From Minisyncoccota bacterium (lineage in GTDB: Bacteria > Patescibacteriota > Minisyncoccia > Phycocordibacterales > Phycocordibacteraceae): DNA of 64,000 nucleotides. Under the pieces are notes generated by a model. The model did not search any database. It was not told where the DNA came from and worked only from the letters and a program-made list of their open reading frames with translations. Of the stretch, positions 24,189 to 42,754 are shown piece after piece (position 1 is the first letter of the stretch; the number at the start of each line of letters is the position of its first letter). The stretch covers positions 556,450-620,449 of the forward strand of contig DASWXP010000002.1 in the NCBI GenBank assembly GCA_036405415.1. The letters are read 5' to 3'. The position numbers and the translations under genes are program-made.

Positions 24189-25103
24189 ATGTTAACCGAG
24201 GCAAGAAAGCTATATAGTATATGCATGGATGAGATAACTATTGGTGACAAGGTCTATATCTCGTCAAAGCGCGCCGCAAAAATTACTGGTTATGCGAAGG
24301 ACTATGTCGGCCAGCTTTGTCGTGAGGGCAGGGTTGAAGCGCGACTGGTAGGCCGAAACTGGTATGTCCTGGAATCTGCGATCCGTGAGCACCGCTTCGG
24401 TTCTGCGCATGAATCCAGCAATGTAGCAGCTAGCTCTGAGGAGGTTCCTGTTGAGGATAGGGCAAATACGTGGCAGAAACCTACATATATACCTGAAAAT
24501 CCTTTGATGGTGCCAGAACTTGCCCAGAAGCCTGTTCAAGAGCCAGTTTCAAGCCCTGCGATAGCTGATATGCAGTCTGCTTGGAGGGAGTGGTTCTCCG
24601 ATAAGAAGACAGTTGATGCGCTTCCTGACGGATCTGAAGACTTTAAGGACGAATATCTCCCTGTAGTGCTTGAAAGTGCCGAGCCTGTAGAGATAAGAGA
24701 AGAGGAAACCGTAACCCTGCAAAGAATAGAGTCTCCAGTTGAGGCAAAAAAGCCTGAAAGCAGTGAGGAAAGTGAGGTTGAGATTCACAAATCCTACGCC
24801 TCTAGGGAGACGGGAGAGCTGGTACCGCATACCAGCATTCCTGTAGTCGACCTAACACCTAAGAGCCAGGGTAGAAGCAGGCCTGTAAAGCCACTAAATC
24901 CGGCAGCAACCGCTAAAAAACCTTCGGGCAGTGGTGTAACCCGAGCGCTCCTGATTGTTCTCGCTTCGGTAGCAGTGCTAGTAGCTGTTGTAGGAACCGG
25001 TAATGCCGACAGATACATTGGCACTACTAGTACCGATTCAGGACCACAGAAAGCGATTCTGGACTTTCTCGGAGGAAAGAGTAGCTATAAAAGTACCCTA
25101 TAA
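24189..25103 (+). CDS. bitopic membrane protein with N-terminal excisionase-type HTH (HTH_17-like), acidic linker, C-terminal TM helix and short exposed tail
   Basis: KVYISSKRAAKITGYAKDYVGQLCREGRVEARLVGRNWYV matches the HTH_17 pattern and the N-terminus of the giant ORF at 25688; TM ALLIVLASVAVLVAVVG near C-terminus; alternative start ATG 24225. Confidence 0.5.
   Translation: MLTEARKLYSICMDEITIGDKVYISSKRAAKITGYAKDYVGQLCREGRVEARLVGRNWYVLESAIREHRFGSAHESSNVAASSEEVPVEDRANTWQKPTYIPENPLMVPELAQKPVQEPVSSPAIADMQSAWREWFSDKKTVDALPDGSEDFKDEYLPVVLESAEPVEIREEETVTLQRIESPVEAKKPESSEESEVEIHKSYASRETGELVPHTSIPVVDLTPKSQGRSRPVKPLNPAATAKKPSGSGVTRALLIVLASVAVLVAVVGTGNADRYIGTTSTDSGPQKAILDFLGGKSSYKSTL
24213..24218 (+). 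promoter_or_regulatory. -10-like hexamer TATAGT 6 nt upstream of ATG 24225
   Basis: gctatatagtatatgc-ATG. Confidence 0.3.
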
Positions 25104-25147
25104 AATATAGATATCTCGTCTCGTATCAAAGAGATTAGATAAAACGT

Positions 25148-25183
25148 ATAGAACACCCTCAACTTATGTTGAGGGTGTTCTAT
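25148..25183 (+). repeat. perfect 16-bp inverted repeat, 4-nt loop
   Basis: atagaacaccctcaac-ttat-gttgagggtgttctat. Confidence 0.45.
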
Positions 25184-25310
25184 CAATTTAGATCAGCTAA
25201 ATAAAGGCTAACCACTAGCAAATATGTACAAAAAGTCATTCTGTAGGAATTAATACTCCGTAGACGGTCTCTTAATAACTGGCAAAAAATTAGAGATTAA
25301 GAGCAATTAA

Positions 25311-25348
25311 CGAGCCCTACATACCTATATATAGATATGTAGGGCTCG
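25311..25348 (+). repeat. 38-bp near-perfect palindrome centred on CTATATATAG
   Basis: cgagccctacata-c-ctatatatag-a-tatgtagggctcg; candidate operator. Confidence 0.45.
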
Positions 25349-25687
25349 TACAAATTAAACTTCTGCGCGCAATTACTAATAAATACTTAGTTAGTCCGAA
25401 TAACCGATACGCTCCTATATATAATTGTCTACTTACACACGAAACTAGTTCTGGTAGGAATTTTGTATCCCTTCTGTTGCAAGGGAGTTGAATCTAAGGG
25501 TGGTAATTCTCTTGGATTTGAGTTTAGTGTCTATGCTGCGATGAATTTTTTCGTAATCAGTAGTAATGGATCTTGTTGGCAATTTTTTTCATGATGAGTG
25601 CCTGAAGAATATCCACAAAGAAACATACTAATTAAAAGAAATATCAAGGTAAACTGTAGTTAATTCGGATATCCGACCTACTGCACC

Positions 25688-28600
25688 TTGAACAAACTTC
25701 TTCAAGAAAAATTAATTTCTACGAAAGACGCCTCTGCTCTTTCTGGATACACTTCCGACTATCTTTCACGGCTATGTCGCGAAGGAAAGATTGATGGCAC
25801 GCAGGTCGGAAGAACATGGCTTGTAGATCGTGATTCGCTTGAGAAGTTTATTGCAACGCAGATTGATCGAAAGGCTGAGCTTGCAGAATCGCTTGCACGC
25901 GAGCGCGAGCGCGAGTATCGCTTGAGCAACACGAAATCCATCTCGATGACTCGTTCGATGGAGCGGGGAACGCGGGATGCGGTCAACTCTGTGGTTGCAG
26001 CGTTTGCAAAGGCACGGCTGCCTCACGGTATGCCGGCATTCTCAGGGACTGCTGTTGCTATGGCACTTACCGCAATCGTACTTGCTGGTAGCGCAGCAGC
26101 CGCAGGATCTGGAGTGGTCGCGCGCATGGGTGCCGGTCTTCTCGCGGCAGCGCTCGAGGCTCGAGTCCAGGTACTTGAAGGAGCACACTCACTTGCGATT
26201 GATTCATTAGCGCATCGAGAGACGCTTGCAGAGACAGCGCGCGAAGACCTTGCGCTTGATGAGAATGCATTTGCAAACGTGCAGAGCATAAAGCTTGAAG
26301 AAGTGTCTTCGGCACTTACGCTAGCGATGCGCGACGTGCATGCCCCCGTAGCCCCAACGCAGATTGCATACGAGCGCGCAGAAGAAATCTCTGCTACCTA
26401 TGCGAGCGATACTACGTTTGCAGAAAGCGCAAAGGCAATTGGATCGGCAGTACAGAATCCTAACGTTACAGCCTCTGTTGTGGCTGATGGTCTTATGCGC
26501 ACCTACGCATCGGTTGGTGCGCTTGCGCTCCGCGACATTGAGACGACGCTAAGCGCACATGAGGATGCGGTCACTGCAGCAGGCGAAGGATTGTTCGCGC
26601 TAAGCACCGGCATGCGCGATGGTGCACGTACGCTACCGCTTGCGGTAGGAAGTGCTTTCATAAGAGCGAGCGACGCGTCATTGAGTCTCTACGAACAGGG
26701 TGTCTATGGGTTCGCAGCGCTCTCCCAGGATGTCCCGCATACTCTCGTTGCTGCAGCGCTCGATACTGGCTCCATGGTTGGGGGACTCACACAGCTTGCG
26801 GTCACAGCTGCCCCTCGAGCGTATGAAGATGGGATGATTTCATTCAGTGAGGAGACCTCGCAGCTTGGAATGCGCATATCTGAAGGATCCTTTGCGCTCG
26901 GGGCCAATTCACACGGTCTCGTTTCAGGCCTCTTGATCGCTGAAGACCGCGCAATCGCAGGATTCATGCGCTCTGCTAGCGATACGGTTGCTCTAGCTCC
27001 CGCAGGTACCGGAAGCGCTTCAGCACAGCAGGGAATCGATCTGGTACCAAGCGCCATAACGAACGAAGTGCTGGGAATCGTAGGCAATATCGCGCTCTCG
27101 ATCGAGAACCTGGAGGGAGACATGCTTACCGCGTCTCCGCTCGCGTCTCTTAACCTCGACGCATTCGTTCCAGGATTCCTCAAGAATGTGACCGCGGTGC
27201 TTGCTCGCGCATTTGATAGCGCGCTCCATGGAATCCTCGGACCGCTCGCGGGCTTCTTTGGCGCAGGCGAAGAGGCGGGCATCGCGATCATTCCTGGAGA
27301 CGGTGCGAACATCCCGGGTCCTGGTGACCGCGGCTCGAGTGAGGCTTCGATCGTGTACAACGGGCCGGTAACAATCATCCGTAATGAGTATCCTTCCGTA
27401 ACCTACGGAGGTGTACCTCAGGCATACGTCGATGAACGATTCGACTTCCTCCGTCGCACGCTCTACAACCGCATCGAAGACGTTGCTGATGACGATGATG
27501 TCGGCATCACGACGCTCGACGGCCAGACCGGCAATGACATGTTGCTTAATAATCCGACGATCGTCGGAGGGACCATCACCGACAGCGAACTCGATGTCGC
27601 AACCTCGACCGTAACCGGCTCGTTCACCGTAAACGGGAACGCATCGATCACCGGCGACCTCACTGCTACGAATGCAACCACGACGAATTTCTACGCGACT
27701 GCCGGCTCCTTCGCCTCGGCGACCATCGATGTGCTTACCGCGCCGTCTGCGACCATAGCGAATCTCATCGTCACGAACAGCACCACCACGAACGCGACGT
27801 CGACCAATCTCTACGTTTCCAATCTCGCAGGCCTCGTAGCGACGATTACCGATGCGTTCTTTACGAACGTCACCGCATCGCTCGCGACGCTCACGAACGC
27901 GGTCGTAACGACGCTCACCGCTACGAATGCGACACTCACGAACGCCACGTCGACCAACGCGACCACCACCGGGTCGCTCGCGCTTACGTACGTGACCCCG
28001 TCACGCCTCCTGTCCGTAGACGCGTTCGGGAAAGTCGTCGCGACCAATCTCGCGTCATGGGTAACCGGCTCAGCGAACCAGATCACGGTGACGGATACGG
28101 GCGCAGGCGGCATCCAGCTCTCGCTCCCGTCAGTACTCGTCTTCGGCACATCCTCTCCGACCACGCTTGCCGGAAACGGCGCTACCAGCACCTTCGGCGG
28201 CGGCATCTACGCGCCGCGCATCGAGGCGGGAGAGTACATCGCAGGCCCGTACGTCCTCGCCACCTCGACCACCGCAACCTCGGCGTTCTCAGGCAACATA
28301 GCGATCGGTCGGAACGCCACGATCGGTACCAGCGCGTCCGATTCGCTCGTCGTGAATGCGACCGTCGGCTCTAACTTCGTCCCGTCTCTTAATAACGCGT
28401 ACGATCTTGGCTCCGCCGCGAATAACTGGCGCCGTATCTACGTAGATGAAGTGGTAGCGAACAACCTCTCCGCAGCGTCCACCTCGATCGCAGGGACGGT
28501 ATCGAGCGACTTCTCCATAAACTCTGATAACGCTTCGAACGATACGGAGGACATGAGCCTCACGTTCAATCGCGGCGTCGCGTCCCCGAACGCTATCCTC

Positions 28601-31600
28601 GCGTGGAACAGCACGACGAAGCGCTTCGAGTTCAACATGCCGGTCTTCTCCGCAAACGGCATCTTCACAAACGCGACCACGAGTAACCTAGCCGTTACGA
28701 ACTTCACGCTCGGCGGTTCCACCTTTACCTCGCTCCTCGGATCAGGACTCTCGAACGTTGGGGGCGCACTTACCGCAGACCTCGGCGCGCTCGACGACAC
28801 GTTCTTCAGGCAGGACGGGAACTCTTTCGGCGCTACCGCAATCCTTGGCACGAACGACAATAACAATCTCGCGTTTGAGACGAACGGGTCCACGAAGATG
28901 ACCCTCCTTGCCAACGGCTACCTCGGTATCGGCACCACCTCTCCGACGACCCCGCTTTACGTCTCGAGCGACTTCCCGCGCATCACCATCGACAGGAATA
29001 CGAACAACAGCGGCAACTCGCTCATACTCTTCAACCAGGAGTCCGTACTCAAGGCCGGGATAGGAATCGCCGGAGGAACCAACGGCGTGATTGCTGGAAG
29101 CGTATCCGGAGACCTCGTCGCGCGCACTCAGGGAGGGAACATGTACTTCTCGAACGATGGCACGGGAGCGACCTCGCAGCTCTCGATTATCAATAACGGG
29201 AACGTCGGTATCGGTACCGTGACGCCATCGACGCTCTTGCATCTTCATACGGCCGGCGGAGGTGACGCACCTCGCCTTAAGTTCACGAACGGCACCACCG
29301 GCACGACCGCGACAGACGGCGCGTTCGTGGGCATCTCGAACACCTCGCAGCTCGATGTGTGGAACTTCGAGAGCAATTCCTTGCGGTTTGCCACAGCGAA
29401 CACCCTGCGGATGGTAATCGATGCTACGGGAAATGTAGGAGTAGGAACCTCGTCTCCAGCTTTCGCGGCGATATCAGCCCGGTATCTGGCGGTTGACGGG
29501 TCAAGTCTCGGAGCGGATATTCCTGGTGCGGTCGGTGCCGGAGGCAACATCACAGGAACTACGAATAACATCGGCCAGTTTGCGTTCTACAACAACGCGC
29601 TTTCAACCGCAGAGAAGCGCAACGCGACGATTGTAGGAACGAACGACGGGGCGCTCAATAGCGGTCTCATCAGATTCTTCACGGCGAATGCGGGCACGCT
29701 AGGCGAACGCATGCGCATCACGTCAACCGGCAACATCGGTATCGGCACCACAACTCCGGATCGAATGCTCTCTGTGGCGGGTACGGGACTCTTCACCGGC
29801 CTCACGACCTTCCTCTCCGGCTTTGACATCGGAGGCTCGACGTTCACGTCGCTTCTCGGGAGCGGCCTCACTAACGTAGGCGGCGCGCTTACGCTTGACC
29901 GCACGGGAGACTGGACCGGAACATTCGATGGACAGGAGGGGTCGTACTATCTTGCGCGCGCGAACCATACCGGTACGCAGCTAGCGTCTACCATCTCTGA
30001 TTTCGCAAGCACCGCGCGCGGACTCTTCAGCTCGACCGCGACGGGCCTTACCTATACTTCAGGCACGGGCGTCTTTTCTCTGACATCAGGCTACGAGATT
30101 CCGCTGACCGCTTCAACTACCAATTGGAACACCTTCTATAACACCCCTTCGACCCGCATCACCGCAGGTTCTGGCCTTGCATGGGCAGGCAACACGCTCT
30201 CAGCAGACCTTAATACCCTCGACGACACGTTCTTCAGGCAAGACGGCAATTCCTTCGGAACGACCGCAACGCTTGGTACGAATGACAGCAATGCGCTCGC
30301 ACTTGAGACCAATGGATCAACCCGGCTCACCATCACGTCCTCAGGGAACGTCGGTATCGGAACGAGCTCGCCGACGCATGCACTGTCCGTAAACGGAAAT
30401 GCCTATATACAAGGAGGAATCGGAAGCGGCATCGAGCCGGCTTCAGTGCCGGGCATACTCTTGCTTAACCGCACGGGCGGCGATCCGGCCATAGTGTTCT
30501 ACGAGAATGGTTCCCAGGTCGGACAGCTGCGCGGAGACGGCACCAACAACAAGATCCAGTTCAGTAACGCGCTCGCAACCCGCTTCCCGTTCACTCTTGA
30601 TCTGACGACAGAGAACATCGGTATCGGCACCACAACTCCGGAGGGCCGCCTTACGCTTGTGGCGAGCTCGACAGGAGACTCGCTTGTCATCGCAAGCTCG
30701 ACCGGCGCTCGGCAGCTTACGGTCAATACGAATGGCTCCCTAATCTTCTCTTCAAGCGGGCAGTCCTACAAGCAGGTTACGGGCGTAGATGAGGACGGGC
30801 CTTCGATCTTCCTTAACCGCACGCTCGGCAATGAAGCCACGGCAAACGAGCACGGCATCATAGACCGCAACACCTTCACGCGCGCGACCAAGGCCTATAA
30901 CTCGTACGACTCACAGCCGTACTTTACGGGTACGAACGACTACGATCACTACGCAGGATTCCAAGCCCGGGGCGCGATGAACTCGACCGGCACGCTCAGC
31001 CGTTATCACGGCTTCGCATCGACGCCGAATGTCGCCGCTGGTACGGTGACGAACCTGTACGGCTACAGCGTCTACGACGCGGTCGGTGCCGGAACGGTGA
31101 CGAACAACTACGGCCTCCACGTACAGAACCTTACGAAGGGAACGAATAACTTCGCGATATACACCGACGGAACTACAAAGTCCTATTTCGGCGGAAACGT
31201 CGGCATCGGTACCACATCTCCAGCGTCACTACTCCACGTCTCTTCTAACACATCTACGAGTTTTACCGTCGAGCGCGATAGCGTTACTGATCCTGGAAAG
31301 ATCCAGCTCATTACTGAATCGGCAGAGAACAGCATTTACTCGAGAACTAACACAACAGCCGCAAAGAACTTGCGATTTGTAATCGGTACTGCCGAGCGAA
31401 TGCGCATCGATACGTTAGGCAATGTCGGTATCGGAACGACGTCGCCATCCCGACTGCTCTCCGTTGGTGATGACGGAACATACTCCGCGTACTTCTCCGG
31501 TCGCGTGGGTATCGGAACGACATCGCCTACCCGCGGTCTAGTTCTTACTTCTGCAACAACGGTTAACGCAGCCCTCCAGCTTGCTTATACGGCCTCAGGC

Positions 31601-34600
31601 GGACGCACCTGGGACATCAATCCGTTCCGAAACGGCGTGAGCAATGCCGGATTCGAGATTTACGATGTCACCGCAGGAGCGAGCCGCATTGCGATTGACG
31701 CGTCAGGGAACGTAGGTATCGGCACTACATCTCCTTCTGCGAAGCTTGATGTGTACGGGAACGCAATCCTTTCATCGGCAGGCTCTACCCTCAGTTTCGT
31801 TAAGAGCGGCGCAGGAGAGACGCCTGCAATCCTCTTTACGCACTCGACGAATGCCGGCGGCTCCCGCATAGTCTCGAGCGGCTCGAACGCGCAGGCGCTG
31901 ATCATCGATCTTGATCAAGATGCAACCTCAAATTTCGATGCATTCAGCATCAGGGCGAACAATACGAGCACGCGATTCCACATTGATAATGCGGGGAATG
32001 TCGGTATCGGCACCACATCTCCATTCGCCAAGCTTCATGTATATGGCGGCGCATCAGGAGTTACTACGCCTTCTGCTACCGCAGACGATTTCGTTGTTGA
32101 AGGCAGCTCGACGAGCCAGAACGGCTTTTCGCTCCTCGGTCCCGACAGCGCGTACGCTTACCAAGTATTCGGTTCTCCCTCAGACAGCTTTGGCGCGTTC
32201 TCGCGGTGGAACTTTAATAATAAGCTTTTTGAAATAGGAACCGCAGATGACACCGGTGCCGCAGACCTTGCCTTCGTGACCGGAAACTCTTCCGAGAAAA
32301 TGCGCATTCTTGATAATGGGAATGTCGGTATCGGCACAACCACGCCAGGGCAGCTGCTCCATGTATATGGCGGAACGAACCCGGCTATCCGCGTTACCGG
32401 AAGCGGCAACACGAGCGCGTACATGGACATTGCAACCGATGGAACCGGCACGGCTCAGACGCGATACATAACAGGGAATACGGCACGGTGGGCCGTAGGT
32501 GTCGACCCGGCAGCGAATAACAATTTCGTGTTCGCGAATAGCTCCGCTGTTACGAGCGGTCAAAGGATGGTGCTTACGACTTCTGGAAATCTCGGTATCG
32601 GCACTGTCGCGCCGCAGACGGCACTTTCTTTCGCGACAACGTCTGCCGCATCCGGCATAACGCTCTATCAGACAGCTGACGAGACGACGAATTACGCGCG
32701 GGGACGCATGTACTACAACGGAAGCGTGTTTACGCTTCGCACGGAAAAGGCAGGATCAGGAGCCGATACGCCGCTCAGTATCTACCCATCAAACGGCATC
32801 GCGAATATCTACTTCTCAACATTAGGCACAGATGGAAATACCGGCTTCGTGCAGATCGGCGCTGCCAATAACACACAGAACCGCATCAGCGTGCATCTCG
32901 GTGTCGGCTCGCACGGCGCTTCTGTAGGAACGCAGACACAGGTCGCTATCCAGCCTACGATTGCGCAGGCTGGAACTGCGAACTACATTGCGCTCTCCAT
33001 CAAGCCGACCGAATCATCGCTCGGATCCGGAAGCAGCTATCTGTTCCAGGCGGGGACCGCAGCCAATCCTGGGATGTTTAACATCACGAATGCTGGAAAC
33101 GTGGGTATTGGAAACTCGAATCCTGGCTCGCTTCTGAATGTTTCTACCGATACGGTCGGCGCAGCAGCTTTCATGGTCAATACTGTAACGGGGGGCCAGG
33201 CACGATGGCAGATTACAGCGGCAGGTTCGCCAACAACCTCGCGCTTCATAATGTCTGCGCGAGACAGCTCGAACAACACTGCTGTGTCCATCGATCCAAC
33301 GGGAACAACCTATTTCAATACTGGAGGCAATTTCGGTATTGGCACTTCCAGCCCGTCACGCAAGCTTACGGTTGAAGGCGACGCATCTGTCTTGTTCCGC
33401 CTCGATCGAACCACGACGGTTAACAGCTATAATACGATTCAATTCAACAGCCCTTGGACAGGTGGAAGCTACACAGCACAGATAGGAACGAAGGCAGAAA
33501 GTACGTATGCCAATAGCTACACGTACATCTCGGCTGATAATACGAACATTCACCTCGCGGTAACCACTGCGGGTAACGTGGGCATCGGCACCGTCAGTCC
33601 AACCGACAAGCTTGCGGTGCTCGGAGACACGAATGGATACATAAACGCTCGCGTACGCAATGATAATGCCGGATCTTCAGCGTATGCGATGATCGGCATC
33701 AATGCTTCAGGCAACTCCTGGGGCATGCGCATGGGGTCTGCAGCAAACAACAGCAACAGGCTTGATTTCGTCTCAGACGCCTTCGGTACGCCTGTAGAAA
33801 GGTTGAGCATCACGACAGCAGGAAACGTCGGTATAGGTACCACGACTCCTACCGCACTGTTCCAGGTAGGAAGCGCGACTCAACGCGGCTTCAAAGTGTA
33901 TGGAAATAATAGTCCTTATGGGACGGTGCTCGCCGGTGATGCTGGTGGTTGGGCGTTTGGGTATAATTTTGAAGGTAATGCAGGAGCAGCTCTCGGTGGA
34001 TTCGGAGCGTTAGGGAACTCAAATAGCCTGGACAGTTACTATATCGGTACGTTCGCGAATCAGAGGATGACTATCCTTAGCGGGGGTAATGTCGGTATCG
34101 GGACTACAAGCCCGTACGCTGGACTCACGATTGCCCGCGGAGGCGGTACTGCAGCATTTGCCGACACAATCCTTTCGCTAAACAGCTCATCGAATGTTGA
34201 GCGATTCAGATTCTCCGGAGACGGTTCGATGCAGTGGGGAACAGGTGCGGCAAACGGCATCCTTTCTTGGGATACAAATCTCGCGATAGTGGGGGGAAGC
34301 GCAGGGAACGCCCTTTCTCTACGTGCGAACAATGCAGACGTTGTCCGCATAACAACTGCAGGCAACGTCGGCATCGGCAACTCGGCGCCAACCACACCAC
34401 TTGATACGCAGGGCATAATCACGACGCGCTCCGCGGCAGCGGATACGCCGGGCGCGCCAACCGAAAGCATTCGCATGTCGCTTACGGGATATTCGCCAAC
34501 AGACAGATATAGGAATTCGATATTCAACTCGGTATCGACCATCCCCGCTTCTTCGGTAATGCAGTTCAGGGTTAATAATGGTGATACGACGCAGGCGACG

Positions 34601-37600
34601 GTAATGACGCTGCTGGGCAATGGAAACGTAGGCGTCGGCATCACGAATCCAAGCTACCGATTCACCGTTCAGGATACGACGACAGACGGTATCGCAGGAC
34701 GATTCTCTCAGTCAGGAACGGGCACGCCCTTTGGTGTCTACTCGTCAGCAACAGGCGCGGGAACGCAGAACGTTGCCGGCTACTTCCAGACAAGCGGCGC
34801 AACTACGAATATCGGCGTAAGTGCTGACGTTGCGTCAGGCGCGAACAACTACGCCTTCTACGCAGCCAATACTGCAAAATCGTACTTCGCAGGCAACGTC
34901 GGCATCGGCGTTACGAGTCCCGCAAGCCAACTCACGGTTGGAAAGACAACCGGAGGTGTCATATCGATCACGACCGCAGGAACCGCGGGTACCACCGCCT
35001 CGCCGCTTCCGGCGACCCTCAACTTCGTTGGGTACGGAGAAGTCACCAAGGGCGCTATCAGCGTGCAGGACCGAACCGGAAACGTCCTCGGAGGATGGAT
35101 GAAGTTCCAGACCGCCGACAGCTCTGACGTGCTTCAGGACCGAGTAATGATAGATAGGGCGGGCAACTTCGGTATCAATACGATGACGCCGCAGGCAACG
35201 CTCGTGGTGGGCGGCGCGCAGAGCGGCAATGCAGGCCTCGAGATCGTTCCAGGCTCCGGCATCGTCGCGCAGTCGTACAACCGAAACACAAGCGCGTATG
35301 CAAGCCTCAGCTTCGACGCGTCAGCAATCGCATTCCGCCCGAGCGGCTCGACCATGCTTACGGTCAACGGCGCAGGAGCTGCGGTGGGAACCGCGAGCGT
35401 CTCTGACCGCTTCGTCGTGGAGGTCGCGACCAATAAGCGTCTCGGTGTAGAAGAGATCACGAGCTCGGCAATCAGCGACTTCTCGACGGGCGGCGCGAGC
35501 ATCCAGTTCTCGCGCGCGAGCGATGGGGCAGATAACCTGACCGGTATATTCACCTACAACAATTCCGGAAACACGAGCATTAACCTCGCCATGGCAGCAC
35601 GCAGCGACTTGGTGTTCGCAGCTGGCGGAGGCGCAGCGTACACGAACTCTCCAGAGCGCATGCGCATAACGAGTTCCGGTAACGTCGGTATCGCTACGTC
35701 CACTCCTGGCCAGGCGCTCACGGTTGCAGGAAGCACGTACATAACCGGAGGTCTTGGCATCGGTAACGTCAACACGACTGCAGGCTCGCTCCTCACCACC
35801 TCGCACATAACGATGGGAACGCTCTCGCAGTTCTCTGCTGCAGGCGGCTCAGCACTCACGTCGCCAGCAAACGGCGTATGGCGCGTAACCAACAACGCAG
35901 GAACCGACTTCAGTCGCTTCCAGTTCGGCGGAGGCACTTCAGCATTCCCGTCTATCAAGCGCAATGGCGCAGGTCTCGACTTCCGCCTGGCGGATGATTC
36001 CGGATATGCGACCACGACCCATCAGGGCGGTCTCTTCCTTGGAAATGTCGGTGTGGGAACCACGACGCCAGGGTACAGGCTTAGTGTTGGAGGCGATATC
36101 AATTTTACCGGCAGCCTTTATCAGAACGGCGTCGCGTTCGGCGGCTCGTCACAGTGGACGACGAGCGGAAGTAACATCTACTACAACACTGGCAATGTCT
36201 CGATTGGTACGACCACAACGTCATCCACAACGAAGCTCTTCGTGGTAGGTCCGAACACTGGTACTGTCGCATTCTCGGTTGGCGATAGGTTTAGGGTTGA
36301 TGGCCTAGGAAATCTTTTCTGGGGCCAAACCGCAGGAACTGTTAGCGGCATTCTTTCATCTGCTGCGAATGGTGACGTAACGATGGGTTCTCAGTTTGCT
36401 AATAGAGACTTGTACATTCAGACAAGTGCATTTAACGCTATCCAAATCTACGGAGGTGTTACCGGCACGCTAGGAAACATCAAGCTTGGCGCATATGGAG
36501 CGGGTACACTCCAGACAGACGGTGCCGGAAACGTCACTGCTTCATCGGATGAGCGCCTCAAGGATATTCAAGGCAATTTCTCGAGAGGGCTTGCAGATCT
36601 CATGGCCATAAATCCGATTAATTACCGATGGAACGCAGCTTCAGGGTTCGATACTGAAGGCATGTACAGCGGATTCTCAGCACAGAACGTCAAAGATTCT
36701 ATCCCTGAAGCGGTAGGAACAGATCCGAGGGGATATCTGACGTTGTCGGATCGACCAATACTTGCTGCTACCGTGAACGCAGTGAAGGAGCTCAATGTCC
36801 GCACGCTTTCACTCGCACCAGCGGCTCAGAACCAGGAAGCACACTCGCTCGCGGTATCCGCAGACGCGTCCGTAGCAGGCCTCCTCACGGTCTCCGGCAC
36901 CGGCTCATTCCTCGGTACCGTAGAAGCAGCGTCATTCCTGACGACTGCAGACGCAGGACTTCCTGAGAACGTGCTCACGGCAGGTCAGGCAGACCTCTAC
37001 AAGATGGCGCGCTTCGCCATCTCAGAGATCAAGGACCTCAAGGAGCGCACGGACCTCCTTGCGGTACGCATCGACGACATCGAGACCCGTGTTGCCGCGC
37101 TCGAGGCACAGGGACAGAGCGCCTCCTCGACCATGGCCGGGGCCGTTGGCCTCACGGCAAGTTCCCTCAAGAGCGCGCTCGAATCCTTCGGTATCTTCAT
37201 CGAGAACGGCATCGCGCAGTTCAATACGCTCGTATTCCGACAGCTCGCGGTTGCCAAGGACGAAGCGGGCGACTCTTCCGCAGGCAGCGTAACCATCCTC
37301 GCGGGCAACACCGTGACGCAGGTGCAGAACCCGTACGTGCTCCCGACCTCAAAGGTATTCGTCACCTTCACGAGCCCGGTGGTTGGCGCGTGGTACATCA
37401 GCCACAAGGAAGCAGGCAGCTTCCGCGTGACGCTCGCCGAGTCCCAGCCTTCTGACGTCTCCTTCGACTACTTCATCCTCCAGACCGAAGGCCAGCTCGC
37501 AAGCCCGGGCGCCGCAGGACCGAGTCAGCAGAACCAGGTCCCGACGCCGGCACCGCAGCCGTTCCAGCCGGTGTTCCCGCAGGACGGGGGAACCACGACG

Positions 37601-37981
37601 CCAGCAACCTCAGGCGACACCACGCCGCCATCCATCTCGCTTAACGGAAGCGCCGCTATCGAAGTAGGGCAGGGAGGCTCTTGGAACGATCAGGGCGCAA
37701 CAGCTTCAGACGACGTTGACGGCGACCTCTCGAGCCATATTCAGGTATCAGGCTCCGTTGATACGGCAACGCCTGGCCTCTACACCGTCACGTACTCCGT
37801 ATCGGACGCTGCGGGTAATCAGGCGAACGTATCACGCATCGTGACGGTTACTGCAGCGCCACAGGCACCAGCACCAGCTCCAGCTCCGGCTCCGGTGCCT
37901 ACACCGACTCCGGAACCAGCTCCGGCTCCAGCACCTGAACCTGCTCCAGCTCCGGAACCAGCACCGGCACCCTCCGTATAG
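25688..37981 (+). CDS. giant (4097-aa) membrane-anchored surface fibre protein: N-terminal HTH_17-like module, TM helix, T/N-rich region, ~25 GNVGIGTTSP repeats, Peptidase_S74-like intramolecular chaperone domain, coiled coil, DUF5011 Ig-like domain, Pro/Ala/Glu tail
   Basis: Single uninterrupted ORF; only available start is TTG 25688 (in-frame TAA at 25661); domain calls from motif recognition (see findings). Confidence 0.7.
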   Translation: MNKLLQEKLISTKDASALSGYTSDYLSRLCREGKIDGTQVGRTWLVDRDSLEKFIATQIDRKAELAESLAREREREYRLSNTKSISMTRSMERGTRDAVNSVVAAFAKARLPHGMPAFSGTAVAMALTAIVLAGSAAAAGSGVVARMGAGLLAAALEARVQVLEGAHSLAIDSLAHRETLAETAREDLALDENAFANVQSIKLEEVSSALTLAMRDVHAPVAPTQIAYERAEEISATYASDTTFAESAKAIGSAVQNPNVTASVVADGLMRTYASVGALALRDIETTLSAHEDAVTAAGEGLFALSTGMRDGARTLPLAVGSAFIRASDASLSLYEQGVYGFAALSQDVPHTLVAAALDTGSMVGGLTQLAVTAAPRAYEDGMISFSEETSQLGMRISEGSFALGANSHGLVSGLLIAEDRAIAGFMRSASDTVALAPAGTGSASAQQGIDLVPSAITNEVLGIVGNIALSIENLEGDMLTASPLASLNLDAFVPGFLKNVTAVLARAFDSALHGILGPLAGFFGAGEEAGIAIIPGDGANIPGPGDRGSSEASIVYNGPVTIIRNEYPSVTYGGVPQAYVDERFDFLRRTLYNRIEDVADDDDVGITTLDGQTGNDMLLNNPTIVGGTITDSELDVATSTVTGSFTVNGNASITGDLTATNATTTNFYATAGSFASATIDVLTAPSATIANLIVTNSTTTNATSTNLYVSNLAGLVATITDAFFTNVTASLATLTNAVVTTLTATNATLTNATSTNATTTGSLALTYVTPSRLLSVDAFGKVVATNLASWVTGSANQITVTDTGAGGIQLSLPSVLVFGTSSPTTLAGNGATSTFGGGIYAPRIEAGEYIAGPYVLATSTTATSAFSGNIAIGRNATIGTSASDSLVVNATVGSNFVPSLNNAYDLGSAANNWRRIYVDEVVANNLSAASTSIAGTVSSDFSINSDNASNDTEDMSLTFNRGVASPNAILAWNSTTKRFEFNMPVFSANGIFTNATTSNLAVTNFTLGGSTFTSLLGSGLSNVGGALTADLGALDDTFFRQDGNSFGATAILGTNDNNNLAFETNGSTKMTLLANGYLGIGTTSPTTPLYVSSDFPRITIDRNTNNSGNSLILFNQESVLKAGIGIAGGTNGVIAGSVSGDLVARTQGGNMYFSNDGTGATSQLSIINNGNVGIGTVTPSTLLHLHTAGGGDAPRLKFTNGTTGTTATDGAFVGISNTSQLDVWNFESNSLRFATANTLRMVIDATGNVGVGTSSPAFAAISARYLAVDGSSLGADIPGAVGAGGNITGTTNNIGQFAFYNNALSTAEKRNATIVGTNDGALNSGLIRFFTANAGTLGERMRITSTGNIGIGTTTPDRMLSVAGTGLFTGLTTFLSGFDIGGSTFTSLLGSGLTNVGGALTLDRTGDWTGTFDGQEGSYYLARANHTGTQLASTISDFASTARGLFSSTATGLTYTSGTGVFSLTSGYEIPLTASTTNWNTFYNTPSTRITAGSGLAWAGNTLSADLNTLDDTFFRQDGNSFGTTATLGTNDSNALALETNGSTRLTITSSGNVGIGTSSPTHALSVNGNAYIQGGIGSGIEPASVPGILLLNRTGGDPAIVFYENGSQVGQLRGDGTNNKIQFSNALATRFPFTLDLTTENIGIGTTTPEGRLTLVASSTGDSLVIASSTGARQLTVNTNGSLIFSSSGQSYKQVTGVDEDGPSIFLNRTLGNEATANEHGIIDRNTFTRATKAYNSYDSQPYFTGTNDYDHYAGFQARGAMNSTGTLSRYHGFASTPNVAAGTVTNLYGYSVYDAVGAGTVTNNYGLHVQNLTKGTNNFAIYTDGTTKSYFGGNVGIGTTSPASLLHVSSNTSTSFTVERDSVTDPGKIQLITESAENSIYSRTNTTAAKNLRFVIGTAERMRIDTLGNVGIGTTSPSRLLSVGDDGTYSAYFSGRVGIGTTSPTRGLVLTSATTVNAALQLAYTASGGRTWDINPFRNGVSNAGFEIYDVTAGASRIAIDASGNVGIGTTSPSAKLDVYGNAILSSAGSTLSFVKSGAGETPAILFTHSTNAGGSRIVSSGSNAQALIIDLDQDATSNFDAFSIRANNTSTRFHIDNAGNVGIGTTSPFAKLHVYGGASGVTTPSATADDFVVEGSSTSQNGFSLLGPDSAYAYQVFGSPSDSFGAFSRWNFNNKLFEIGTADDTGAADLAFVTGNSSEKMRILDNGNVGIGTTTPGQLLHVYGGTNPAIRVTGSGNTSAYMDIATDGTGTAQTRYITGNTARWAVGVDPAANNNFVFANSSAVTSGQRMVLTTSGNLGIGTVAPQTALSFATTSAASGITLYQTADETTNYARGRMYYNGSVFTLRTEKAGSGADTPLSIYPSNGIANIYFSTLGTDGNTGFVQIGAANNTQNRISVHLGVGSHGASVGTQTQVAIQPTIAQAGTANYIALSIKPTESSLGSGSSYLFQAGTAANPGMFNITNAGNVGIGNSNPGSLLNVSTDTVGAAAFMVNTVTGGQARWQITAAGSPTTSRFIMSARDSSNNTAVSIDPTGTTYFNTGGNFGIGTSSPSRKLTVEGDASVLFRLDRTTTVNSYNTIQFNSPWTGGSYTAQIGTKAESTYANSYTYISADNTNIHLAVTTAGNVGIGTVSPTDKLAVLGDTNGYINARVRNDNAGSSAYAMIGINASGNSWGMRMGSAANNSNRLDFVSDAFGTPVERLSITTAGNVGIGTTTPTALFQVGSATQRGFKVYGNNSPYGTVLAGDAGGWAFGYNFEGNAGAALGGFGALGNSNSLDSYYIGTFANQRMTILSGGNVGIGTTSPYAGLTIARGGGTAAFADTILSLNSSSNVERFRFSGDGSMQWGTGAANGILSWDTNLAIVGGSAGNALSLRANNADVVRITTAGNVGIGNSAPTTPLDTQGIITTRSAAADTPGAPTESIRMSLTGYSPTDRYRNSIFNSVSTIPASSVMQFRVNNGDTTQATVMTLLGNGNVGVGITNPSYRFTVQDTTTDGIAGRFSQSGTGTPFGVYSSATGAGTQNVAGYFQTSGATTNIGVSADVASGANNYAFYAANTAKSYFAGNVGIGVTSPASQLTVGKTTGGVISITTAGTAGTTASPLPATLNFVGYGEVTKGAISVQDRTGNVLGGWMKFQTADSSDVLQDRVMIDRAGNFGINTMTPQATLVVGGAQSGNAGLEIVPGSGIVAQSYNRNTSAYASLSFDASAIAFRPSGSTMLTVNGAGAAVGTASVSDRFVVEVATNKRLGVEEITSSAISDFSTGGASIQFSRASDGADNLTGIFTYNNSGNTSINLAMAARSDLVFAAGGGAAYTNSPERMRITSSGNVGIATSTPGQALTVAGSTYITGGLGIGNVNTTAGSLLTTSHITMGTLSQFSAAGGSALTSPANGVWRVTNNAGTDFSRFQFGGGTSAFPSIKRNGAGLDFRLADDSGYATTTHQGGLFLGNVGVGTTTPGYRLSVGGDINFTGSLYQNGVAFGGSSQWTTSGSNIYYNTGNVSIGTTTTSSTTKLFVVGPNTGTVAFSVGDRFRVDGLGNLFWGQTAGTVSGILSSAANGDVTMGSQFANRDLYIQTSAFNAIQIYGGVTGTLGNIKLGAYGAGTLQTDGAGNVTASSDERLKDIQGNFSRGLADLMAINPINYRWNAASGFDTEGMYSGFSAQNVKDSIPEAVGTDPRGYLTLSDRPILAATVNAVKELNVRTLSLAPAAQNQEAHSLAVSADASVAGLLTVSGTGSFLGTVEAASFLTTADAGLPENVLTAGQADLYKMARFAISEIKDLKERTDLLAVRIDDIETRVAALEAQGQSASSTMAGAVGLTASSLKSALESFGIFIENGIAQFNTLVFRQLAVAKDEAGDSSAGSVTILAGNTVTQVQNPYVLPTSKVFVTFTSPVVGAWYISHKEAGSFRVTLAESQPSDVSFDYFILQTEGQLASPGAAGPSQQNQVPTPAPQPFQPVFPQDGGTTTPATSGDTTPPSISLNGSAAIEVGQGGSWNDQGATASDDVDGDLSSHIQVSGSVDTATPGLYTVTYSVSDAAGNQANVSRIVTVTAAPQAPAPAPAPAPVPTPTPEPAPAPAPEPAPAPEPAPAPSV
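28900..36250 (+). repeat. about 25 degenerate coding repeats (~240-300 nt each) each containing a G-N-[VIL]-G-[IV]-G-T-T-[ST]-P motif
   Basis: Motif recurrences read directly from translation (e.g. GNVGIGTTSPASLLHV, GNVGIGTTSPSRLLSV, GNVGIGTTSPFAKLHV). Confidence 0.7.
36542..36810 (+). other. Peptidase_S74-like intramolecular chaperone/autoprotease domain (tail-fibre/endosialidase C-terminal chaperone type)
   Basis: ASSDERLKDIQGNF...LMAINPINYRW...GFSAQNVKDSIPEAV matches the conserved SDxRLK Ser-Lys dyad region of S74 domains. Confidence 0.6.
37624..37852 (+). other. DUF5011-type bacterial Ig-like domain
   Basis: PPSISLNGSAAIEVGQGGSWNDQGATASDDVDGDLSSHIQVSGSVDTATPGLYTVTYSVSDAAGNQANVSRIVTV. 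Confidence 0.55.
37856..37978 (+). repeat. Pro/Ala/Glu-rich C-terminal tail encoded by short tandem ccagct/ccggct/ccggaa units
   Basis: APQAPAPAPAPAPVPTPTPEPAPAPAPEPAPAPEPAPAPSV. Confidence 0.5.
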
Positions 37982-39498: not shown

Positions 39499-40992
39499 AT
39501 GAAAACCACACTATTCGCAAGAATCATCTCAGCTTCCTCAGCGCTTGCTCTGGCGACTCTCATTTTCTTCATGGCAGCTACGAATGCGCTTGCCTGCGGG
39601 ATGACCTGTAATGGGGACTACTTCGCTGCTGGTACGCCCGGAGCAGTTGCAGAGACGGGCAGGTACGACACGGCGGTGTGCATGGGGTCTGTCTCGATAG
39701 AAGAATGTCCTGGCGGAACCGATTATGGAGGCGGGGGCGGAGGTGGTGGTGGCGGAGGCGGCAGCTATGTCGACCTTACCGCAAGCGACATAACACCGGT
39801 CATCACGACTAGCGGCGAAGCACAGACATACTACGCAACCGTCTATAACGGCCCGACGATCGCAGGGAACACTACGACCCTGTTCCAGCGGACCGAGAAT
39901 CCCGGTGACGTGAGCGCGCCAGTGGTGAGTATGGTCGCGACAGCGAGCATGAACCCATACTCAGCGCGCACCTTGTCGGCAAGCTATACCCGTACGGGCG
40001 GTTCGTTCTACATGCGCGCATGCGCAGACGCGAACAATCAGATCGCCGAGATCAACGAGAATAACAACTGCGGTCCGTGGACGCTCATAACCGTCATGCC
40101 TTCTGCGCAGCAGGCGGATCTCGTCGCAGGAAGCGTGAGCGTCTCGAACGCGGTCCAAGGCGCGGCTGCGACCCTGAGCGCGAGCGCGTCGAATATCGGT
40201 GCTGGCGCGTCCGATAGCTTCCCGCTCTTGTTCCAGATCTCAGAGACCGGAGCACGCACTAACAGCGCGTACCTCGGGGGACTCGGTTCCGGCGCTTCTG
40301 CGGGCGGTACCGGCTCGTACAAGTTCCCGGATTTCGGGGTGTACAACGTGCGAGCCTGCGCGAACTTCGACACGGCCTGGAATCCGGTCGCGGCCGAATC
40401 GAGCACCGCGAACAACTGCGGTCCGTGGACCGAGGTCACGGTCTCGCCCGTGGTAACGCCGGCGCTCTCGTGCTCCGTATCGGCGACATCGGTAGCGGTT
40501 GGCGGATCGGTCACCTATAGCGCGAACCCGTCAGGAGGCGCCTCTGGTCCCTACACCTGGACCGCGTCTGACGGCGGGAGCTACGGAACCGGCTCGACCG
40601 CATCCCGATCCTTCAGCGCTCCCGGCACGTACGCGATGAACGTCGATACGTCCTCGACCGCGGTATCCTACTGCCCGAACGTGAGCGTCGTATCGACCGC
40701 ATGTAGCGCTGCGACAACTGATCTCTCCATAACCGCGACCCCGTCACGCGTGCGTGCGGGACAGACCTCGACCATCTCCTGGACCGCGTCCGGCGTGAAC
40801 GGCGAAGGCGCAAGCTGCACCGTCTCGGGCCCTGGCGTCTCCTGGACCTCAAGCGTAACGGCAGCGCCGCAGTGTTCCGCAGGCGGATCCTCAAGCGCTA
40901 CGATCGCGACCCAGAGCACCTACACCATCACGTGCGCCGGCCAGTCCGAGAGCGTCGTGGTGAACGTGATTCCGCAGATCATCGAGTTCTAG
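39499..40992 (+). CDS. secreted CARDB-domain adhesin-like protein A (Gly12 tract; C-terminal Cys-containing module ending NVIPQIIEF)
   Basis: Signal peptide, NNCGPWT motifs twice, C-terminal ~300 aa paralogous to the protein at 49982..51940. Confidence 0.6.
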   Translation: MKTTLFARIISASSALALATLIFFMAATNALACGMTCNGDYFAAGTPGAVAETGRYDTAVCMGSVSIEECPGGTDYGGGGGGGGGGGGSYVDLTASDITPVITTSGEAQTYYATVYNGPTIAGNTTTLFQRTENPGDVSAPVVSMVATASMNPYSARTLSASYTRTGGSFYMRACADANNQIAEINENNNCGPWTLITVMPSAQQADLVAGSVSVSNAVQGAAATLSASASNIGAGASDSFPLLFQISETGARTNSAYLGGLGSGASAGGTGSYKFPDFGVYNVRACANFDTAWNPVAAESSTANNCGPWTEVTVSPVVTPALSCSVSATSVAVGGSVTYSANPSGGASGPYTWTASDGGSYGTGSTASRSFSAPGTYAMNVDTSSTAVSYCPNVSVVSTACSAATTDLSITATPSRVRAGQTSTISWTASGVNGEGASCTVSGPGVSWTSSVTAAPQCSAGGSSSATIATQSTYTITCAGQSESVVVNVIPQIIEF

Positions 40993-41508: not shown

Positions 41509-42231
41509 ATGGGAATCATAGTCCCGGCCATACTTCCGGTATCGCGCGAGGACCTCGAGCAGAAGCTCGATATTCTTGACGGTGTCTGCGAAGAGGTGCA
41601 GGTAGATATCGTGGACGGCGTCTATGCCGGTCCTGCGACCTGGCCCTATACCCGGGACGCGTCAGAACCGTCACGCATGCTCGCGGATGGGGAATTCCTC
41701 CCGAAAGCCGGTCGCTTCAGGATTGAAATCGATCTCATGAGCGGAGACCCGGAGTCTGTGGCGGGAACCTGGATCGGGCTCGGCGCTGCGCGTCTTACGA
41801 TCCACGCGGAGAGCACGCGGTACCTGCCGCGCTTCCTTGCGAGCACCCGCTCCCTGTACGGGCATGACAAGGAGTTCGAATCCGACCTGCTGTCGCTCGG
41901 CCTTGCTATTGGCGCAGAGACCGACCTCTCGCTGATCGAGCCCTATATCGACAAGATCGATTACGTGCAGTTCATGGGCATCCGTACCATAGGCAGGCAG
42001 GGCGAGCCGTTCGATATGCGCACGATCGCGAAGGTCCGGGCATTCCGGAAGAAGTACCCGAAGACGCCGGTGCAGGTGGACGGAGGCGTGACGCTCAAGA
42101 ACGCCGCAGAGCTCCTTGATGCGGGTGTGGCGCGCCTTGTCGTGGGCTCTGCGATCTGGCGCGCAGAGAATCCACTCGACGCGTATCGCGCGCTCGACGC
42201 CCTCACCGAGCAGCATGGGCTCTATGCATAG
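41509..42231 (+). CDS. rpe: ribulose-phosphate 3-epimerase-like (divergent)
   Basis: IVPAIL N-terminus, VQVDIVDG, later FMGIRTIGRQGEPFD motifs reminiscent of Rpe TIM barrel. Confidence 0.55.
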   Translation: MGIIVPAILPVSREDLEQKLDILDGVCEEVQVDIVDGVYAGPATWPYTRDASEPSRMLADGEFLPKAGRFRIEIDLMSGDPESVAGTWIGLGAARLTIHAESTRYLPRFLASTRSLYGHDKEFESDLLSLGLAIGAETDLSLIEPYIDKIDYVQFMGIRTIGRQGEPFDMRTIAKVRAFRKKYPKTPVQVDGGVTLKNAAELLDAGVARLVVGSAIWRAENPLDAYRALDALTEQHGLYA

Positions 42232-42754
42232 CATCCGCGGATTCACTCTTATCGAGCTTCTCGTAGTGATAGCCATCATCGGCGTGCTCTCGTCGGTAGT
42301 ACTCGCAAGCCTCAGTCAGGCGCGCATCAAAGCACGCGACACGTCCCGGATATCGCAGCTCGCGGAGATCCGGAAAGCGCTCGAGCTCTATTATCTCGAT
42401 AAGGGCTACTATCCGGCATCTAACTGCGGCTGGGACTGCAACGGATACCGCTACAGCTACGACAGCTCATGGAATGCGCTCGCGAGCGACCTTGCTCCGT
42501 ACATGAGTACGTTGCCGCGCGATCCCGTGAATACCGGCTGCACGCCGTGGAGTGCGAATTGCTTCTCATACGCGTACGGGAACGTAGGACGCAGCACCTA
42601 TGCGCCGCAGTACGATCTCACCGCCCAGCTCGAAGACCCCTTGAGCGCGTACCGCTGCACAGCTCGCGGTTACCGGTTCTATTTCAATAATCAGGGCTGG
42701 TGCAGTGCATCTGGGGGATCCTATTCGGATCAGATTTACGAAGCGTCGCCATAA
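42215..42754 (+). CDS. type IV pilin / pseudopilin (prepilin-type N-terminal cleavage-methylation domain)
   Basis: MGSMHSIRG|FTLIELLVVIAIIGVLSSVVLASL class III signal; ATG 42215 overlaps rpe stop. Confidence 0.75.
   Translation: MGSMHSIRGFTLIELLVVIAIIGVLSSVVLASLSQARIKARDTSRISQLAEIRKALELYYLDKGYYPASNCGWDCNGYRYSYDSSWNALASDLAPYMSTLPRDPVNTGCTPWSANCFSYAYGNVGRSTYAPQYDLTAQLEDPLSAYRCTARGYRFYFNNQGWCSASGGSYSDQIYEASP

Follow-up and report, generated by a model that had tools for sequence, protein, structure and literature searches.

A giant, probably cell-anchored fibre protein with a mosaic array of capping-loop modules in a Candidatus Paceibacterota bacterium

The mosaic adhesive trimer (MAT) fibres of Bdellovibrio are intertwined trimeric beta-helices with capping loops at their edges (Caulton et al. 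2024, PMC10769870). These loops follow the consensus V-G-G/N-small-x-x-P-x-x-x-L and are exemplified by R656-H669 and F752-H765 of Bd3182, which lie 96 amino acids (aa) apart in a trimeric beta-helix solved at 1.1 Å (PMC10769870). Registration of the chains by an S74 domain is established for phage fibres and for Bd3182, and cleavage in these proteins exposes a ligand cleft (PMC10769870). Giant membrane proteins of 1,392-4,163 aa, presumed to act in host recognition or attachment, have been reported from Vampirococcus lugosii, a predator belonging to the Candidate Phyla Radiation (CPR) (PMC8080830). Here we analyze a 64,000-nt stretch of contig DASWXP010000002.1 (positions 556,450 to 620,449, GenBank assembly GCA_036405415.1; hereafter the window), in which an uninterrupted 12.3-kb open reading frame (ORF; 25688..37981, TTG start) encodes a protein of 4,097 aa with 25 copies of the motif G-N-V-G-I-G-T-T-S-P-x-x-x-L-x-V. 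All window features listed below with paired-dot coordinates are on the plus strand. The evidence makes it probable that this protein is a giant cell-anchored homotrimeric adhesion fibre with a recombining modular shaft, encoded by an ultrasmall Candidatus Paceibacterota (CPR) bacterium.

To our knowledge, little has been established about how CPR bacteria, or Patescibacteria, find and hold their hosts beyond the use of type IV pili. The locus provides a concrete candidate for host recognition, in the form of a fibre that is possibly as long as a cell and is built from modules used by phages and by Bdellovibrio for the recognition of bacterial surfaces. Its fixed chromosomal position makes the gene recoverable and comparable across genomes, and change in the central part of the gene is much faster than in the remaining genome. 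The capping-loop beta-helix module has no Pfam family, and a curated profile would annotate many proteins now labelled 'hypothetical'. The presence of diverged intragenic repeats is the ordinary aspect of the gene, such repeats being common in giant surface proteins.

The module array and the two ends of the protein

The repeat array spans 28880..36217 (aa 1065-3510). An earlier note on this DNA, made from the letters alone, had placed about 25 intragenic repeats with units of 240-300 nt at 28900-36250, and our searches bear this out. A regular expression located 23 strong copies of the core in the 4,097-aa ORF, and a profile built from them recovered the same 23 (domain E 1e-12 to 3e-19) and added two weak copies, at aa 1643 and aa 3499. 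The consensus over the 25 copies reads R-M-R-I-x-x-x-G-N-V-G-I-G-T-T-S-P-x-x-x-L-x-V, with the motif residues G, N, G, I, G and P kept in 22-24 of them. Motif starts lie 27-205 aa apart, with a median unit length of 89 aa (267 nt) among the 18 regular units. Self-BLAST of 100-aa chunks returned 394 off-diagonal high-scoring segment pairs (E<1e-3), all confined to aa ~984-3510, versus none in each of five shuffles, so the periodicity is well beyond chance.

At the DNA level, similarity among units is limited to a recognisable motif core of 29-60 nt at 60-80% identity, the longest exact repeat in the array measures 29 nt, and Tandem Repeats Finder reports no array with a unit-length period in the DNA of the ORF. 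Mean identity among aligned units is 25% for amino acids and 38% for nucleotides, and where residues are identical, their third codon positions agree only 38% of the time, synonymous sites thus being randomised. Given this low unit identity and the randomised synonymous positions, the repeats are old and do not constitute a recent DNA tandem repeat, as the earlier note had also argued; they are structural protein modules, not a DNA repeat phenomenon. The two larger internal duplications that had been proposed are likewise real, both being recovered by chunked self-BLAST. The first pairs aa 1018-1092 (28739..28963, containing DDTFFRQDGNSFG and ETNGST) with aa 1494-1568 (30167..30391) at 67% identity over 75 aa, and its DNA (nt 28775-28948 and 30203-30376, 72% identical over 174 nt; family D7) is the largest DNA repeat. 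The second pairs aa 984-1051 (28637..28840, containing GGSTFTSLLGSGL.NVGGALT) with aa 1360-1425 (29765..29962) at ~50% identity.

Pfam and NCBIfam hold no model for the repeat unit. Tail-fibre profiles of the PHROG database match it strongly (phrog_9942, E=3.5e-53; phrog_18345, E=5.8e-51), and among solved structures the fibres of Bdellovibrio bacteriovorus are the only ones with sequence similarity to it (PDB 8ond, E=2e-11; 8ojn, 2e-6; 8oml, 2e-5; also 8OL4). In the phmmer alignment, GNVGIGTTSPSRLLSV and GNVGIGTTSPSAKLDV of the window protein fall exactly on RVGVGTTAPTSALH and FFGINTAAPAYNIH of Bd3182 (8ojn). Because the motif aligns on the Bd3182 loops, we equate it with a capping loop and each unit with one loop-to-loop segment of a shaft; the 96-aa spacing of the Bd3182 loops fits the unit length in the window protein. 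An AlphaFold2 model of five units (aa 1890-2331, computed as a monomer from 60 aligned homologues) is all-beta, with predicted local distance difference test (pLDDT) values of 80-93 at the motifs. When this model was searched against the PDB with Foldseek, the best 13 matches were all Bdellovibrio MAT fibres (probability 0.99-1.00, E to 3e-7), 27-34% identical to the model in the case of the Bd3182 beta-helix, and were followed by tail fibres of Mu, T5 and T4. Alignment and model together point to a MAT-type beta-helix shaft with capping loops, presumably trimeric, and the repeats, whose nature the earlier note had not addressed, are on this basis identified as its capping-loop modules.

The module is widespread. 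A five-module query matched at least 3,370 metagenomic proteins at E<1e-5 (the count exceeds this number and is a lower bound); among the matches listed, most are unannotated metagenomic proteins of 500-770 aa, some carry an S74 domain and one, P0029, carries the phage Mtd_N domain. With tblastn, the module was found in annotated tail fibres of 44 isolated-phage records, mainly Pelagibacter phages and cyanophages.

The array is followed by a last Gly/Thr-rich segment of array-like composition (36218..36544, aa 3511-3619), which would form the distal tip of the mature fibre and lies directly N-terminal to the serine of a Peptidase_S74 domain (36545..36715, aa 3620-3676). This predicted intramolecular chaperone and autoprotease matches PF13884 with 31.1 bits in the whole protein and 34.2 bits in the C-terminal piece (cut-off 22), covering profile positions 1-57 of 58. 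A putative catalytic Ser-Lys dyad is present in S3620-D-E-R-L-K3625, that is, S-D-x-x-x-K, and the S, D and K columns are invariant in 12/12 family members. The model of this domain (pLDDT 74-84) matches the ICA domain of the myelin regulatory factor MyRF (7dc3) with probability 1.00 and a target-normalised TM-score of 0.51-0.54. Beyond the S74 domain come long helices that probably form a coiled coil (36995..37246, aa ~3770-3853; model helices H186-225 and H240-269, of low confidence), with a weak match to the coiled-coil family DUF7310, and a small beta-sandwich domain (37280..37480, aa ~3865-3931; model strands 281-347, pLDDT 75-83) that has no Pfam match. A bacterial surface immunoglobulin (Ig)-like domain (37634..37849, aa 3983-4054; PF16403, E=3e-22), matched by PDB 2kpn in both sequence and fold, precedes a Pro/Ala/Glu-rich C-terminal tail (37850..37978, aa 4055-4097; Tandem Repeats Finder rows 37864-37971), and a similar tail ends most complete family members. 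The stretch aa 3800-4055 is 68-92% identical in five of the eight members compared, far above the conservation of the array, and for this reason the post-S74 fragment is probably functional in itself, beyond a disposable chaperone. In the S74 region the distant family member P0245 is 76% identical, versus 56% for the nearest relative, P0244.

An array of this kind might alternatively belong to a monomeric beta-solenoid or to a wall- or S-layer-type protein, with units that fold independently and an inactive S74-like domain. The monomer model is indeed all-beta with confident motif regions, the Ig-like and Pro/Ala-rich segments at the C-terminus are of wall-spanning type, and CPR bacteria with giant multi-domain membrane proteins are known (PMC8080830). 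The solved homologues, however, assemble every beta-helix face from several chains, so that a single chain is unable to close the fold (PMC10769870); all of the closest structures are trimers, and the invariant Ser, Asp and Lys of the S74 domain would argue for an active, trimer-dependent protease. We consider the monomeric alternative improbable.

The N-terminal end starts with an HTH_17-like (helix-turn-helix) domain (25715..25861, aa 10-58), presumably cytoplasmic, which scores 24.5-26.4 bits against Pfam PF12728, slightly under the cut-off of 27. The NCBIfam model 'excise' and phrog_6401, a PHROG DNA-binding family, also match the N-terminus, and the Patescibacteria homologues P0001-P0003, named HTH domain-containing proteins, carry PF12728. 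A single hydrophobic segment (26027..26122, aa 114-145) contains the sole 19-residue stretch above a Kyte-Doolittle value of 1.6 in the whole protein and is preceded by 110 residues rich in Arg and Lys; it is the putative transmembrane anchor, and these features suggest a topology with the N-terminus inside and the C-terminus outside. It is followed by an Ala/Gly/Leu-rich, predicted extracellular N-terminal domain (26123..27637, aa 146-650), which homology searches mark as family-defining and which is 74% identical in P0244 and 28-47% in the other members. A Thr/Ala/Asn-rich basal stalk (27638..28879, aa 651-1064; T 17%, A 14%, S 11%, N 10%) with short TNATxTN-type repeats leads into the array; it is conserved better than any other part of the gene, at 96-99% identity in P0244 and 59-66% in five further members. 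A second repeat system, of the T-N-A-T-x-T-N type with 15-45 nt spacing (families D8-D10), can be seen within the stalk at 27650-27970 (aa ~655-760). A query with aa 1-650 matches 2,254 representative proteins at E<=1e-3, many of them of widely varying length and over their first ~80-160 residues only, that is, the HTH-like domain, linker and transmembrane helix. The N-terminal module thus appears to be a widespread 'head' on otherwise different proteins.

Variation among relatives and chromosomal setting

The same query (aa 1-650) was used to delimit the family, with 318 representatives matching at E<=1e-10 and 20 at E<=1e-30; 19 members, the window protein included, were examined. Eleven of the 19 are complete, with both the S74 domain and the C-terminal tail, and these are 1,890 to 4,524 aa long and contain 6 to 33 modules, in agreement with the length variation between relatives that had been anticipated. 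The remaining eight have neither S74 domain nor tail, end in the stalk or in the array and contain 0-5 modules; P0249, P0250, P0267, P0271, P0321, P0323 and P0389 are among the members that end without the tail. Metagenome assemblies often break up giant genes of this type. Positional orthologues of the window gene were located in three related genomes (L001, L002 and L003). The giant gene of L002 (17017-22526 on contig CAZEGH010000003.1) runs to the end of its contig, which falls in the array at residue 1969, and the L001 contig stops before the gene end, giving a count of at least 27 units. P0246 was considered as the L001 protein and rejected at 36% identity.

The closest relative, P0244, is encoded on L003, a genome whose SecA, Obg, GatB and GAPDH are 93-98% identical to those of the window (MurB, 82%). 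The two ends of the giant gene align well between these genomes, with DNA identities of 79% over 25688-29215 and 80% over 36758-37965, and the C-terminal 250 aa of P0244 are 92% identical to the window protein. Between ~29215 and 36758 there are just short, non-colinear matches of 70-77% identity. Counterparts in P0244, at shifted positions, exist for ten of the 24 variable inter-motif segments and for none of the other 14, the array of even the closest relative being both reshuffled and partly replaced, a variation that goes beyond one of length alone. Some segments are better matched in far more distant members than in P0244: segment u2979 is 79% identical in P0247, and segment u1348 reaches 75-79% in P0253 and P0252, two members with N-domains only 28-33% identical to that of the window protein. 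Comparison with the L001 array reveals the same scrambling. Edges of homology blocks fall on the motif in 10 of 14 cases within the array, of which the motif makes up 26% (binomial P=5e-4). We read this pattern as module-wise evolution of the array, in which whole modules appear, disappear, change order or are substituted, the motif serves as the junction and both gene ends are kept. No silent donor cassettes were detected, the motif occurring in no other reading frame of the 64-kb window or of L003.

Hypervariability of this kind could in principle be an assembly artefact, with reads of co-existing strains joined at the motif. The motif core is conserved in DNA, with up to 29 identical nt, and joins there would keep the frame; the L002 contig does break in the array, and many database homologues are truncated. 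Against such an origin, the 14 of 24 variable segments without a P0244 counterpart go beyond what rearrangement alone produces, 6-33 units are found across eleven independent assemblies that keep both ends, an identity of 29 nt is far below read length, and a metagenome-assembled genome (MAG) with a longest contig of 622 kb encodes a SecA 100% identical to the window's. We therefore give this explanation little credence. The proneness to assembly collapse that had been suspected for the array is not supported for the window copy, whose longest identity is 29 nt and whose largest repeat is 174 nt at 72%, with the caveat that about half of the 19 members end without the C-terminal tail and that the L002 contig breaks in the array.

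The giant gene lies among housekeeping genes, with Wzy-like, MurB, SecA, Obg and GatB genes upstream and genes for GAPDH, a CARDB protein, RpiB, Rpe, a pilin-like protein and transketolase downstream. The MAG with the identical SecA is a Candidatus Paceibacterota genome, and the next SecA matches are all from Patescibacteria. In L001, L002 and L003, whose SecA proteins are 83%, 88% and 98% identical to that of the window, the orthologue again follows MurB-SecA-Obg-GatB and a hypothetical protein of ~300 aa. This conserved synteny among housekeeping genes identifies it as a stable chromosomal gene of a CPR bacterium and not as a prophage gene.

The setting bears directly on the possibility of a prophage or phage-derived tail-fibre gene that serves a virion or tailocin instead of the cell surface. 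Such an origin would accommodate the strong PHROG tail-fibre matches, the occurrence of the module in fibres of isolated phages and in the Mtd_N protein P0029, and the S74 domain, which is typical of phage fibres and spikes. Yet no phage genes, and no phage structural module, lie near a locus flanked by MurB, SecA, Obg, GatB, GAPDH, RpiB and Rpe; the gene holds the same position in four genomes, its N-terminus combines an HTH-like domain with a membrane anchor and has no virion-attachment domain, and the locus shows no tRNA or integration signature. A phage function is consequently highly improbable, being largely refuted by gene context. A contingency-type locus, in which slippage or unequal crossing-over between near-identical DNA repeats changes the unit number, would agree with the differences in unit number between relatives, but is refuted by the ~38% nucleotide identity of the units, the lack of a Tandem Repeats Finder array and a longest exact repeat of 29 nt.

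The proposed fibre and its upstream leader

A giant cell-anchored homotrimeric adhesion fibre remains the probable identity of the window protein, and several points weigh against it. Our data show the repeats, the mosaic pattern, the synteny of the locus, the S74 motif and the homology to solved capping loops and their fold; the trimer, its cleavage, its surface display and its binding are features that we infer, as are topology, fibre length and adhesive function. The five-unit model represents a monomer and has only moderate confidence overall (mean pLDDT 67.7), and its global TM-scores to the PDB matches are low (0.16-0.21, query-normalised). A DNA-binding-type domain is an odd N-terminus for an extracellular fibre. 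The S74 domain is not terminal: 478 residues extend from Ser3620, ~400 of them beyond the domain, and a conserved stretch of 345-541 aa follows S74 in every complete member and would be lost from the fibre if cleaved. This departs from the usual phage and MAT arrangement, in which S74 forms the C-terminal end, an arrangement that MyRF shows not to be strictly required. That block edges coincide with the motif is to be expected in part, since local alignments extend into conserved motifs, and all the sequences compared are metagenome assemblies, in which chimeric joins at the motif could mimic some of the shuffling.

The proposed fibre would run from a cytoplasmic HTH-like N-terminus through the transmembrane anchor, the ~500-aa N-domain and the stalk into the 25 modules. 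In the shaft, an intertwined beta-helix (beta-prism) of three chains, each ~90-residue unit would account for one segment. By extension from phage fibres and Bd3182, the S74 chaperone would bring three membrane-anchored chains into register from the C-terminal side, and these would then zip into the shaft. Self-cleavage at Ser3620 may subsequently leave the last segment of the beta-helix as the exposed distal tip, releasing a conserved 478-aa fragment with the S74 domain, coiled coil, beta-sandwich, Ig-like domain and Pro/Ala tail. Very rough estimates of length can be derived from Bd3182: at 60 Å per 135 aa, as in its tip, the array would measure ~110 nm and the extracellular part ~155 nm, and at 550 Å for a fibre of ~760 aa the respective values would be ~180 nm and ~250 nm. 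On these very rough figures, the fibre would be comparable in length to the diameter of a CPR cell. Its most likely role would be long-reach adhesion to, or recognition of, the surface of a host or partner cell.

A conserved leader (25643..25687) stands directly before the TTG start of the giant gene and includes a perfect palindrome, TCGGATATCCGA (25665-25676), that occurs once in the 64-kb window. The 45-nt leader is 100% identical in the window, L001 (9956-10000) and L003 (8185-8229), and the palindrome together with CCTACTGCACC-TTG is invariant in all four genomes (L002, ~16657-16701). Elsewhere the ~600-nt AT-rich spacer cannot be aligned, and the encoded N-termini are just 48-93% identical. 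There is no Shine-Dalgarno-like sequence in the leader before the TTG start, and a sigma-70 promoter scan of the leader gave nothing beyond chance. We regard this element as a candidate for an operator or for the control of translation. Another conserved box, TATCCACAAA, is located ~70 nt upstream.

The gene upstream of the leader (24189..25103) always adjoins the giant gene. It encodes a 304-aa protein that has an HTH-like motif at the N-terminus and a hydrophobic helix at the C-terminus, and is 55% identical in L001, 78% identical in L003 and also present in L002. No Pfam family matches this protein above threshold. Its aa 24-60 are 49% identical over 37 aa to aa 10-46 of the giant protein (E=1e-11), and it may be a partner, or a paralogue, of the anchor module.

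These elements can be combined into a more far-reaching proposal, which in its joint form we regard as doubtful: that the array is a host-range cassette system of an episymbiotic CPR bacterium, with autoregulation by the HTH domain through the leader palindrome. The ~48-nt in-frame motif would act as a recombination junction for ~90-residue modules, and even for the S74 region, with exchange between lineages or with phage fibres; the length and surface of the fibre would be re-tuned, with anchor and C-terminal end fixed. The membrane-tethered HTH domain, present also in the upstream protein, might bind TCGGATATCCGA and regulate fibre synthesis.

Further features of the surroundings deserve mention. 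The 590-nt spacer at 25100-25690 is unusual for a compact genome and belongs to a 2-kb stretch with a GC content of 45%, against 58% for the whole window. It contains two long perfect hairpins (~25148-25183 and ~25308-25349), the first of which scores as a minus-strand terminator and probably terminates the upstream gene. A tRNA-Asn called there by ARAGORN (25445-25521, with an odd anticodon position) had hinted at an integration site and was judged most likely a false positive, Rfam detecting no tRNA even at E<=1 and the sequence being unconserved in L001. Downstream of the giant gene, at 39499-40992 and 42116-42754, genes for RpiB, Rpe and a split transketolase are interleaved with CARDB and pilin-like (N_methyl/T2SSG) genes; the corresponding stretch of L003 (22265-28115) has four type IV pilin-like genes. 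The CARDB protein is only 77% identical in L003, versus 93-98% for most housekeeping neighbours. In L001, an extra 446-aa ORF (4457-5797, minus strand) lies between SecA and Obg and is absent from the window, L002 and L003.

Comparison with known systems

A parallel is found in the T-even phage adhesins gp37 and gp38, whose hypervariable segments are bordered by conserved glycine-rich motifs that serve as recombination points. The likeness is functional only, in that a short Gly-rich motif delimits exchangeable segments of mosaic receptor-binding proteins; these adhesins belong to phages, are of much smaller scale and have neither a related fold nor a related motif.

MyRF, whose ICA domain (7DC3) matches the S74 fold of the window protein, carries the same capping-loop motif (PMC10769870). 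It, too, is a membrane protein, bears a DNA-binding domain at its N-terminus and has an S74 domain that is not C-terminal. In MyRF, however, S74 lies on the membrane side to which the DNA-binding domain belongs, and cleavage frees that domain, whereas cleavage of the window protein cannot free its HTH domain because ~3,500 residues and the membrane separate the two. The giant proteins of Vampirococcus lugosii resemble the window protein in size, membrane location and presumed role, but have been described with WD40, PKD, integrin and fibronectin-type domains, unlike the window protein (PMC8080830).

The phage fibres and spikes with S74 domains, such as the L-shaped tail fibre pb1 of T5 (4UW7/4UW8) and the K1F endosialidase (3GW6), combine a trimeric beta-helix with a chaperone that cleaves at the Ser of SDxxxK. 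The repeated module itself is common to the window protein, PHROG 9942 and 18345, and the fibres of Pelagibacter phages and cyanophages (e.g. S-TIM5). Phage fibres are virion parts with phage-attachment N-termini and S74 in last position, whereas the window gene is chromosomal and its product far longer and, by its predicted architecture, membrane-anchored; its gene context sets it apart from virion fibres.

Among the closest known systems are the Bdellovibrio MATs of the S74 subgroup, such as Bd3182 (8OJN/8ONB/8ONC), together with Bd2133 (8OND) and Bd1334 (8OML), with which the window protein shares the shaft module and capping loop. Both have an SDxxxK S74 domain after the last beta-helix, form mosaic families and are encoded by cells and not by phages, in organisms that live on other bacteria. 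The window protein is about four times longer, with 4,097 aa and 25 modules versus 922 aa for Bd3182 and 1,031-1,151 aa for the other crystallised MATs. All 21 MATs have a signal peptide and a conserved, beta-rich N-domain of ~130 aa, in place of which the window protein has the HTH-like domain, the predicted transmembrane helix and the Ala-rich domain of ~500 aa; this comparison is one of architecture only, the sequence of the MAT N-domain not being in the PDB. Because the N-terminal architecture that defines MATs differs, we do not file the window protein among them. The conserved extension of ~480 aa that starts at the S74 domain is a feature of the window protein and not of MATs, the hosts are a monoderm-type CPR bacterium and a Gram-negative predator, respectively, and the mosaicism of MATs consists in tip swapping, whereas that of the window protein lies in the shaft modules.

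Our literature search found no paper linking Patescibacteria with S74, MAT-like fibres or the endosialidase chaperone, a full-text search for the motif string 'GNVGIGT' gave no match, and the architecture is not described in the giant-gene (Omnitrophota) paper or in the Patescibacteria perspective. Homologous in shaft and S74 domain to S74-type MATs and phage tail fibres, the window protein stands apart from both in its roughly four-fold length, its HTH-transmembrane anchor, its internal S74 domain with a conserved extension, its CPR host and the mosaicism of its shaft.

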